NCBI GenBank assembly: GCA_048886685.1
Contig: JBHLKM010000001.1
Location: 1 to 64,000, forward strand
From: Candidatus Hodarchaeota archaeon
GTDB taxonomy: Archaea > Asgardarchaeota > Lokiarchaeia > Sigyniarchaeales > SOKP01
Length of the DNA: 64,000 nt
Direction of reading: 5' to 3'
The stretch's first letter is position 1. The number at the start of each line of letters is the position of its first letter. The notes under the pieces are model-generated. The model saw nothing but the letters and a program-made list of their open reading frames with translations, did not search any database and was not told the origin of the DNA. The position numbers and the translations under genes are program-made. Below are positions 4,620 to 21,297 of the stretch, in pieces.

Positions 4620-4729
4620 TGGCGCGGCTAGCGGGATTTGAACCCGCGTCGCAGGAGTGACAGTCCCGAATGCTTTCGGTTAAGGAAACAGAATTGTTAT
4701 ACTTAAAGACCGGGCTACACTATAGCCGC
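4620..4729 (-). tRNA. tRNA-Asp(GUC) with a 32-nt D-loop intron (4675-4706, position 20b/21); CCA encoded
   Basis: Spliced sequence GCGGCTA TA GTGT AGCCCGGTCT^A GCAT T CGGGA CTGTCAC TCCTG CGAC GCGGG TTCAAAT CCCGC TAGCCGC G CCA. BHB: CGGT/ACCG helix with CT^T and AA^A bulges and a TAAG/CTTA intron stem. Confidence 0.93.
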
Positions 4730-17820: not shown

Positions 17821-17980
17821 TGGCAAGGGTGGGATTTGAACCCACGATACCCAGATCTTCAGTTTCACCTCTTTCGAGAATCTCGATAGAGCTGGTGCGT
17901 TCGGGGTATTAATTTTTAATTAATCCCTTCCCGGGTTTCGCGGACCTTCATAAAGTGAAGAACCACTACGCCACCTTGCC
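17821..17980 (-). tRNA. tRNA-Phe(GAA) with three introns at 15/16 (17936-17965), 22/23 (17900-17927) and 30/31 (17864-17891)
   Basis: Removing the three BHB-bounded inserts gives GGCAAGG TG GCGT AG^CCCGGGA A^CGC A CCAG^A CTGAAGA TCTGG GTATC GTGGG TTCAAAT CCCAC CCTTGCC A, a fully paired cloverleaf. Confidence 0.9.
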
Positions 17981-18173
17981 AATGATGTTTTATCTTATTT
18001 TTTGATTAGATCTAGATTATAATCACAATTAAGATAAAGAATAAAGTACAGAATCTCATAAAAATCTTTTTAGTCTTCAAGTTTAAAAATAAGCCCTTAA
18101 GAGCCATAAATTTTCAATTTTCAATTTTCCACAATACCGATAATACTTTTTTATTTAAAAAATATAGAAAAAA

Positions 18174-18416
18174 ATGAGTGAAGTAGAAAAACTAAGAAAA
18201 GCAAAAATTGATAGTTCTGTGGGTGGTATATGCTGGATTGTAATTGGGATCATTATTATAGTTGTGAGTATAACCCTATGTTTATGGATGAGACCACGAA
18301 CAAGTGGATGGACCAGTATGCCGTTAACGAGTTTAAACCTAGTTGTCATTATTATCATTTTAGTCAACCTTGGTTATATTATTTGGAAAGCTAAGAGTGC
18401 TCAAAGGAAAAGTTAG
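18174..18416 (+). CDS. Small 2-TM hypothetical protein
   Basis: 80-aa ORF with two hydrophobic segments. Confidence 0.45.
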   Translation: MSEVEKLRKAKIDSSVGGICWIVIGIIIIVVSITLCLWMRPRTSGWTSMPLTSLNLVVIIIILVNLGYIIWKAKSAQRKS

Positions 18417-18482
18417 AAATAATAACTTATATATTCGATTTTCCGAAAGAATTTTCATATGAACCTATTGGGCTTCTAAAAA

Positions 18483-18948
18483 TTATTGAGAAGGCAATAC
18501 CGGAGCAAAGGCATTATAAAATTCCCTTGCGGTATCAAGGCTTTCCATGACAAACCTTTTTCCAAATGTGACGATAACAACATCTAAACTAGGAATCACA
18601 AAAATAAATCTACCATAAAAGCCAGTAGCCATGAACATGTCTTCAGGAGCATTAGGAATCATTCTTCCTGTATCATTTTTATATGGTCTGTGTCATTTCC
18701 CTAAGGAGTTATTTAACCATACGAGATATCCATAACCACTATTAGTTTCAAGAAAACTAGGTTTTGTCATTTCGTTGAGATATTGTTCTGATATAATTTG
18801 TTTACCATCCCATTTACCTTTATTTAGAAATAGTTGTCTCAACTTTGCTGCATCTCTGGGGGAAATCTTCATCCCATAACCAATAGGAAGATCAGTCAGA
18901 TTAGCTACTACTTTATCCCAAGAGTAATTATGAATACCTAAGGATTGA
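18483..18948 (-). pseudogene. 5'-truncated serine hydrolase / beta-lactamase class C-like relic
   Basis: Manual translation: ...LGIHNYSW...GMKISPRDAAKLRQLFLNKGKWDGKQIISEQY...GYGYLVWLNNSLGK*HRP...MATGFYGRFIFVIPSLDVVIV. Internal TGA at 18693-18695; the N-terminal SxxK half is missing. Confidence 0.8.
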
Positions 18949-18965
18949 CATGGGATTGATGAGAG

Positions 18966-19706
18966 CTACGGGCTTAATATTTTTAATTTCATTTCCATTG
19001 GTAATTTTTCACTCCCATATCTAAGAATTAAACGTGGAAGTATACCTCTATTTCTCATCAAGTATTGAAATATTATTTCAGGGTTATACTTTGAACATGT
19101 TTTCAGGAGCCATCCAATTCCCTTTTGAATGTAATCTTCTGGGTAGATAGTCATTTTTTCAACGAATTGAAACACATAATCCTCGTTGAATTCCTTATTT
19201 ATCATGACTAATTTGAGTAAAATTACCAATGATGCACGTCTAACCCATAAATTCTCTGACATCGACCAAGTCGCAATGGTTTCTTTAGCTAATTCTTCAT
19301 TTCCTTTCTTTCCTAAAAACGGTCCAATAACTCTGATCATTGTTGTATCTGTTATTGCCCATGTATCGAAGTTGTTAGGAATTAACTCTTGAATCATTTC
19401 AACTGTTTCTTTATTAAAAGACTTCTTAAATCGATTCAGAAGGAAAATGCCAGCTATTTTTTCGTCATACACATTGGTTTTTATAAGTGTTTTAAATATT
19501 TCAGAAGCTTCTTTGTAGCTCAATTGAAATTTACGATTAAGTTCTCTAATAAACTTTTCAATATCAGAATGTTTATTTCCGTATGCTACAAAATTAGGAT
19601 TGTCGGAATTCAAAATCTTATACATTCGAGATTTTTGCTCGTTGGTCAAATGAGGAGAGTTTTGTTTTAAATACACCCTAATCTCATGAATAACCTTCTC
19701 GATCAT
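18966..19706 (-). CDS. DNA alkylation repair protein (AlkD-like)
   Basis: DTWAITD, WSMSENLWVRRAS and YIQKGIGWLLK. Confidence 0.88.
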   Translation of the reverse strand: MIEKVIHEIRVYLKQNSPHLTNEQKSRMYKILNSDNPNFVAYGNKHSDIEKFIRELNRKFQLSYKEASEIFKTLIKTNVYDEKIAGIFLLNRFKKSFNKETVEMIQELIPNNFDTWAITDTTMIRVIGPFLGKKGNEELAKETIATWSMSENLWVRRASLVILLKLVMINKEFNEDYVFQFVEKMTIYPEDYIQKGIGWLLKTCSKYNPEIIFQYLMRNRGILPRLILRYGSEKLPMEMKLKILSP

Positions 19707-21204: not shown

Positions 21205-21297
21205 TGCGCCGCCCGGGAATCGAACCCGGGTCACTGGCTGTCTTCAATCAGTTCTGACTATGGAAGGCCAGAATCCTAACCCCTAGACTAGCGGCGC
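21205..21297 (-). tRNA. tRNA-Gly(UCC) with a canonical 21-nt 37/38 intron (21240-21260)
   Basis: GCGCCGC acceptor stem; CTGGC CTTCCA^[TAGTCAGAACTGATTGAAGAC]^A GCCAG; BHB with a CTTC/GAAG central helix. Confidence 0.95.

Follow-up and report, generated by a model that had tools for sequence, protein, structure and literature searches.

The design of the tRNA-Phe gene described here is already documented in both Asgard and Thermoproteales archaea. In three complete Asgard genomes (Atabeyarchaeia/Freyarchaeia), more than half of the tRNA genes possess several introns (PMC11291895), and a preprint (bioRxiv 10.64898/2026.10.13.758758) reports Asgard tRNA genes with as many as five introns, its Fig. 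2a example being a triple-intron tRNA-Phe(GAA), and describes EndA as broadly two-subunit. The same preprint found no general pathway by which introns arrive, it notes that for none of its newly identified introns has splicing been demonstrated in an Asgard cell, and its main text makes no mention of recombination or horizontal transfer. Multi-intron tRNA genes are also established in Thermoproteales and Crenarchaeota (Sugahara 2007, 2008; Fujishima 2010). As cited in PMC4090602 and the preprint, these genes share with the present locus the presence of two or three introns at non-canonical positions, motifs of the relaxed hBH/HBh' types and an (alpha-beta)2 EndA with a CSL loop; similar introns recur there across the tRNA types of one genome, whereas homologues of the introns described below were found only at the same tRNA-Phe position in other species.

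The window, i.e. the whole 64,000-nt stretch of DNA that was analysed, belongs to a Promethearchaeia (Lokiarchaeia, Asgard) genome of 4.4 Mb with about 31% G+C, available as a MAG with 8.4% contamination. The 160-nt feature at 17821-17980, located on a 422-kb contig, is a triple-intron tRNA-Phe(GAA) encoded on the minus strand and read from 17980 to 17821. The sequence-only reading had placed inserts of 30, 28 and 28 nt at positions 15/16, 22/23 and 30/31 around two 8-nt exons, without stating the strand, and these coordinates were confirmed. The gene and its upstream region comprise the following features:

17989..18038, minus strand: probable promoter, AT-rich, with 9-nt inverted arms around a TATA-like core
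17966..17980, minus strand: exon 1, 15 nt, positions 1-15 (5' strands of the acceptor and D stems, plus A14 and G15)
17936..17965, minus strand: intron 1, 30 nt, at position 15/16, relaxed BHB with 3 of 4 central-helix pairs
17928..17935, minus strand: exon 2, 8 nt, D loop including G18-G19 (positions 16-22)
17900..17927, minus strand: intron 2, 28 nt, at position 22/23, central helix with 4 of 4 Watson-Crick pairs
17892..17899, minus strand: exon 3, 8 nt, positions 23-30
17864..17891, minus strand: intron 3, 28 nt, at position 30/31, central helix with 4 of 4 Watson-Crick pairs
17821..17863, minus strand: exon 4, 43 nt, positions 31-73, with A73 as discriminator and the GAA anticodon at 17860-17858

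The four exons are colinear within the 160 nt, the gene being neither split nor permuted, and the terminal CCA of the sequence corresponds to C71-C72-A73, the CCA tail itself not being encoded. Among the eight splice combinations, only that with all three introns out was called by ARAGORN, as a 74-nt tRNA-Phe(GAA). All 21 stem pairs of this triple-spliced form were Watson-Crick, in line with the earlier statement that joining gives a fully paired cloverleaf. An unguided enumeration, which allowed as many as four BHB introns and scored the cloverleaf, ranked the same parse first.

The exon/intron junctions are fixed by intron-less congeners and by identical mature tRNA-Phe sequences found in three other genomes with other intron sets. 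The inserts were missing at exactly these points in compact orthologues (congeners L019 and L020, and family member L154), and the D loop of exon 2 was identical in the intron-less L019 and L020, the intron-less congeners differing from the joined exons at 6-9 positions. Other boundaries, such as a single long intron in the D arm or an intron 1 of 28 nt leaving a different D loop, are highly improbable: the alternative parse of intron 1 had a similar motif score (12.5 versus 12.0), but its cloverleaf score was lower (68.5 versus 74.5), and its D loop was unlike that of the intron-less congeners, which fits the proposed junctions.

Concerning the motifs, the central helices and bulges of the three introns were as earlier described, including the imperfect helix of intron 1, which contains a G10·A mismatch and one G-U pair. 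Each motif had one outer exon pair and an inner hairpin, corresponding to the relaxed HBh' type, and none of the three junctions showed the strict hBHBh' form (4-bp central helix with both outer helices of at least 2 bp). The motif exceeded chance at each junction, with intron 1 being the weakest (3 of 4 pairs): dinucleotide-shuffled introns scored as high as the real ones with P = 0.027 (intron 1), 0.005 (intron 2) and <0.0002 (intron 3), and when each intron was moved to 61 other positions its score was reached 4, 0 and 0 times, respectively. Shuffles of the gene interior never exceeded a cloverleaf score of 57.3 (0/150), the observed value being 74.5. Across relatives, whose intron boundaries were called by BHB-weighted alignment so that pairing counts are partly circular, the central-helix pairing was kept, four of them showing a compensatory replacement of C-G by U-A in the 30/31 helix, and the G·A mismatch of intron 1 was the family norm (20 of 26).

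As judged from its sequence, the locus is very probably a functional tRNA-Phe(GAA) gene present in one copy, with three BHB-type introns in cis, all of them at non-canonical positions. A pseudogene or an assembly artefact, with a working Phe tRNA encoded elsewhere, has hardly any likelihood: the contamination of the MAG speaks for it, but the mature tRNA is fully paired and sits on a 422-kb contig, the syntenic locus and homologous introns in independent genomes largely refute it, and no other Phe gene, whether as a copy or as a fragment, was found in the assembly. The sole-copy status, which the sequence-only reading had proposed to check, thus held among the 42 tRNA genes recovered. This inventory is incomplete, as five isoacceptors (three Leu, Arg-CCG and Pro-CGG) were not found in the assembly, and together with the 8.4% contamination these gaps leave an unassembled Phe copy as a slight possibility. 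The 42 genes contained 37 introns, and this genome-wide burden (about 0.9 per gene) is lower than that of the Atabeyarchaeia/Freyarchaeia and similar to the 0.91 given in the preprint for other Asgard families. The locus also resembles the Asgard genes of PMC11291895 and the preprint in its several short non-canonical BHB-type introns, its D-arm introns missed by annotators, a two-subunit EndA, and the lack of copying between tRNA types within the genome.

The expectation that standard tRNA scans would overlook such a gene was borne out. Neither ARAGORN without intron mode nor Rfam at the gathering threshold returned a match at the locus, ARAGORN -i miscalled it as tRNA-His, and RF00005 aligned with the T arm only (14.5 bits). 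The present parse corrects this annotation gap, which concerns an essential tRNA either missed by standard tools or mistaken by them for His. Two other tRNA genes of the window, both on the minus strand, also contained introns: tRNA-Asp(GUC) at 4623-4729 has a 32-nt D-loop intron (20b/21) and was missed by ARAGORN and by Rfam at the gathering threshold, and tRNA-Gly(UCC) at 21205-21297 has a canonical 21-nt intron at 37/38, its identity being left undetermined by ARAGORN.

The EndA subunit architecture, which the sequence-only reading had proposed to determine, is predicted from sequence to be two-subunit, the host genome encoding two EndA paralogues, alpha and beta. The alpha paralogue matched best the Aeropyrum and Sulfolobus alpha subunits; it has the triad Y139/H147/K178 and, in the specificity loop, a lysine (K56) that aligns with Aeropyrum K44, while the second paralogue had no His at the catalytic position. 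An Asgard (alpha-beta)2 EndA with an L1 loop has been published (PMC5829648), and the predicted host pair fits this state. A predicted (alpha-beta)2 EndA with a specificity loop is encoded along with a ligase, an RtcB gene being present, and the need for a broad-specificity EndA, as previously claimed, agrees with the predicted type of the enzyme and its loop lysine.

The 160-nt precursor would be transcribed from the AT-rich upstream region, a similar region being present upstream of tRNA-Phe in 11 other of 29 congeners. The (alpha-beta)2 EndA would then cleave the relaxed HBh' motifs, in each case following the second base of the bulge, by means of the L1/CSL loop and the triad, after which RtcB would join the exons, the ends would be trimmed and CCA would be added. 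With its 8-nt exons and one mismatched helix, the gene offers a compact substrate for measuring the substrate range of Asgard EndA. Each congener had one of two conserved upstream types, and these types follow the species tree.

Other tRNA genes of the same genome, outside the window, showed comparable structures. A triple-intron tRNA-Tyr(GUA) (G000:C13:87901-88081, minus strand), with introns at 37/38 (49 nt), 43/44 and 59/60, was missed by ARAGORN and RF00005, and a triple-intron tRNA-Ile with anticodon UAU was located at G000:C1:218424-218598 (plus strand). No Ile2(CAU) gene was found in the host genome, and the TiaS domain PF08489 was detected neither there nor in any of the 40 class genomes searched, the four control archaea all being positive (4/4). 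Based on these gene contents, the class may read AUA via the UAU tRNA instead of agmatidine; a literature search on the point returned nothing. ARAGORN also called a tRNA-Sec at G000:C1:221073-221165 (minus strand).

At the class level, 103 distinct tRNA-Phe genes had zero (5 genes), one (28), two (32), three (24) or four (14) introns. These occupied 15 positions, of which 30/31, 19/20, 59/60 and 15/16 were the commonest, relatives having been sampled mostly via an intact anticodon-arm pattern, so that introns at 32-39 are under-counted. Position 30/31 was occupied in 49 of the 103 genes, and the combination 15/16, 22/23 and 30/31 was found in the host gene only. Triple-intron tRNAs had been described by the sequence-only reading as rare and best known from Thermoproteales, which does not stand: 38 of the 103 related Phe genes possess three or four introns, and multi-intron tRNAs of Asgard archaea have been published. 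The documented Asgard multi-intron phenotype is extended here to Promethearchaeia, among which three- and four-intron Phe genes are common; this Loki class is not named in the main text of the preprint. Four-intron genes were observed in relatives L005, L006, L008, L009, L012, L031, L038, L045, L055, L061, L064 and L089, mostly with the set 19/20, 30/31, 51/52 and 59/60, and L005 had an acceptor-stem intron at 5/6.

What is new concerns the tRNA-Phe locus, for which synteny was seen among the compared congeners: its intron sets depart from the species tree, which suggests allele exchange between species, a route examined here and not in the Asgard literature. The balance tips slightly towards a combination assembled by exchange of tRNA-Phe alleles or segments between congeneric species, i.e. 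by recombination at the orthologous locus, rather than through de novo insertion or through copies drawn from other tRNA genes. On the RpoB tree of 29 congeners, no intron position carried phylogenetic signal (P between 0.1 and 1.0; P = 0.52 for the D-arm state), whereas promoter type and two exon base pairs did on the same tree (P ≤ 0.003), with the reservation that the tree is based on one marker gene and that binary tests on 29 taxa are low in power. The nearest kin of the host (G141, G101 and G121) were syntenic, with flanks 82-87% identical, yet they carry the 19/20 intron. The latter never co-occurred with 22/23 (0 of 103 genes, 4.1 expected) and did so only once with 15/16 (11.9 expected). 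The pair 15/16 and 22/23, with homologous sequence, was present in three separate clades (G000, the host; G023; G010). In every case the sisters carry 19/20 instead, and two genomes contrasting in this way are only 0.014 RpoB substitutions per site apart.

At the level of individual introns, intron 1 was identical at 29 of 30 nt to that of the distant G023 (distance 0.32), and intron 3 was closest (89%) to that of G143, whose mature sequence is the same. Such identity alone is no proof of exchange, since introns evolve slowly in some lineages, with identical 30/31 introns at tree distances of 0.2-0.3. Moreover, the genomes are MAG consensus sequences, and any recombination breakpoint or donor element is hypothetical. 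Repeated loss from an intron-rich ancestor, which would compete with exchange, is unlikely. Exchange between species is the simplest reading of the intron pattern, with chances that are even or marginally better, and it is compatible with a functional triple-intron tRNA-Phe. In a more specific form, which may just as well be wrong as right, the host gene is a mosaic produced by Loki species exchanging intron-bearing segments, its D-arm introns being shared with one distant congener, while its T arm and anticodon-stem intron are most similar to those of another. The introns resemble passengers that are tolerated and have a quick turnover between species. Allele exchange, if true, would make lateral allele replacement a route of tRNA-intron arrival, a question left open by the current Asgard census, and one syntenic locus with 0-4 introns at 15 positions in about 100 genomes makes it practicable to test by what means introns reach archaeal tRNA genes.

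Several other sources of the pattern were considered and rejected. Copying between tRNA genes within the genome was not supported, as the best intron matches (0.63-0.67) were at shuffle level (mean of 0.62-0.63) and below the criterion of at least 80%; the three introns resembled no other intron of the genome above that level, there was no second tRNA-Phe copy, and a search for intron donors in the host genome returned low-complexity AT-rich matches only. Mis-binning does not account for the patchy distribution, the same-contig flanks matching those of the RpoB sisters (82-87% for G000, 81-91% for G023 and 91-96% for G010). An element integrated at tRNA-Phe was likewise not supported, with no duplicated tRNA fragment in the genome and no integrase recognised among the neighbouring ORFs checked. 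In the intron gain at tRNA-Thr(GGU) of Caldiarchaeum populations (PMC3293823), intron presence also varies between very close relatives and recombination was proposed, but introns there arrive by way of an integrating element that comes with a duplicated tRNA fragment, and no such fragment was found here.

The tRNA-Phe gene lies in a variable region. Compared to G141, about 890 extra bases were present upstream of it, at about 18080-18990 of the window. Between G010 and its near-identical sister G087 (L273 versus L274), several kb of extra genes were found on each side of tRNA-Phe, with short repeats at the borders.

Concerning the order of splicing, the sequence-only reading considered it probably fixed, and the evidence points the other way. 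In the unspliced precursor, no nucleotide belongs to more than one of the three motif cores, and no order is therefore required; two adjacent independent motifs need an exon of at least 1+4+2 = 7 bases, exons here have 8, and 7-nt exons are present among related tRNA-Phe genes. An obligatory order through nested motifs, where one intron is recognised only after removal of another, is accordingly unlikely. In its favour, the internal exons are only 8 nt long and each outer helix consists of one pair, two adjacent motifs both lay claim to C17 and likewise to G24, the helices of introns 1 and 3 face competition from the D-stem strand, and preferred orders are seen in Cyanidioschyzon (PMC3728597). 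However, the motifs are not nested, each intron was found in relatives without the other two and with the same flanks, and in folding models the removal of any intron did not raise the helix probability of another.

All three motifs could thus form together in an unordered precursor. Intron 1 would probably be cut slowest, having the weakest helix, and the analogy with Cyanidioschyzon makes it plausible that kinetics would favour removing intron 1 last. The triple-intron tRNAs of Cyanidioschyzon merolae similarly have independent, non-nested BHB motifs in one precursor, but they are eukaryotic nuclear genes processed by a eukaryotic enzyme, with splicing and a preferred order shown by RT-PCR. 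With ViennaRNA, central-helix probability was at most 0.07 in every intermediate and the structure with all three motifs lay 13 kcal/mol above the minimum-energy fold; as the same model fails for 22 of the 26 single-intron genes of the host genome, these values say little on the motifs or their order.

A candidate for true order dependence, from its predicted pairing, is the tRNA-Phe of L119 (1407-1573), whose introns at 15/16 and 19/20 enclose an exon of 5 nt. Its 19/20 helix has 4 of 4 Watson-Crick pairs in the unspliced precursor, using the last base of intron 1.
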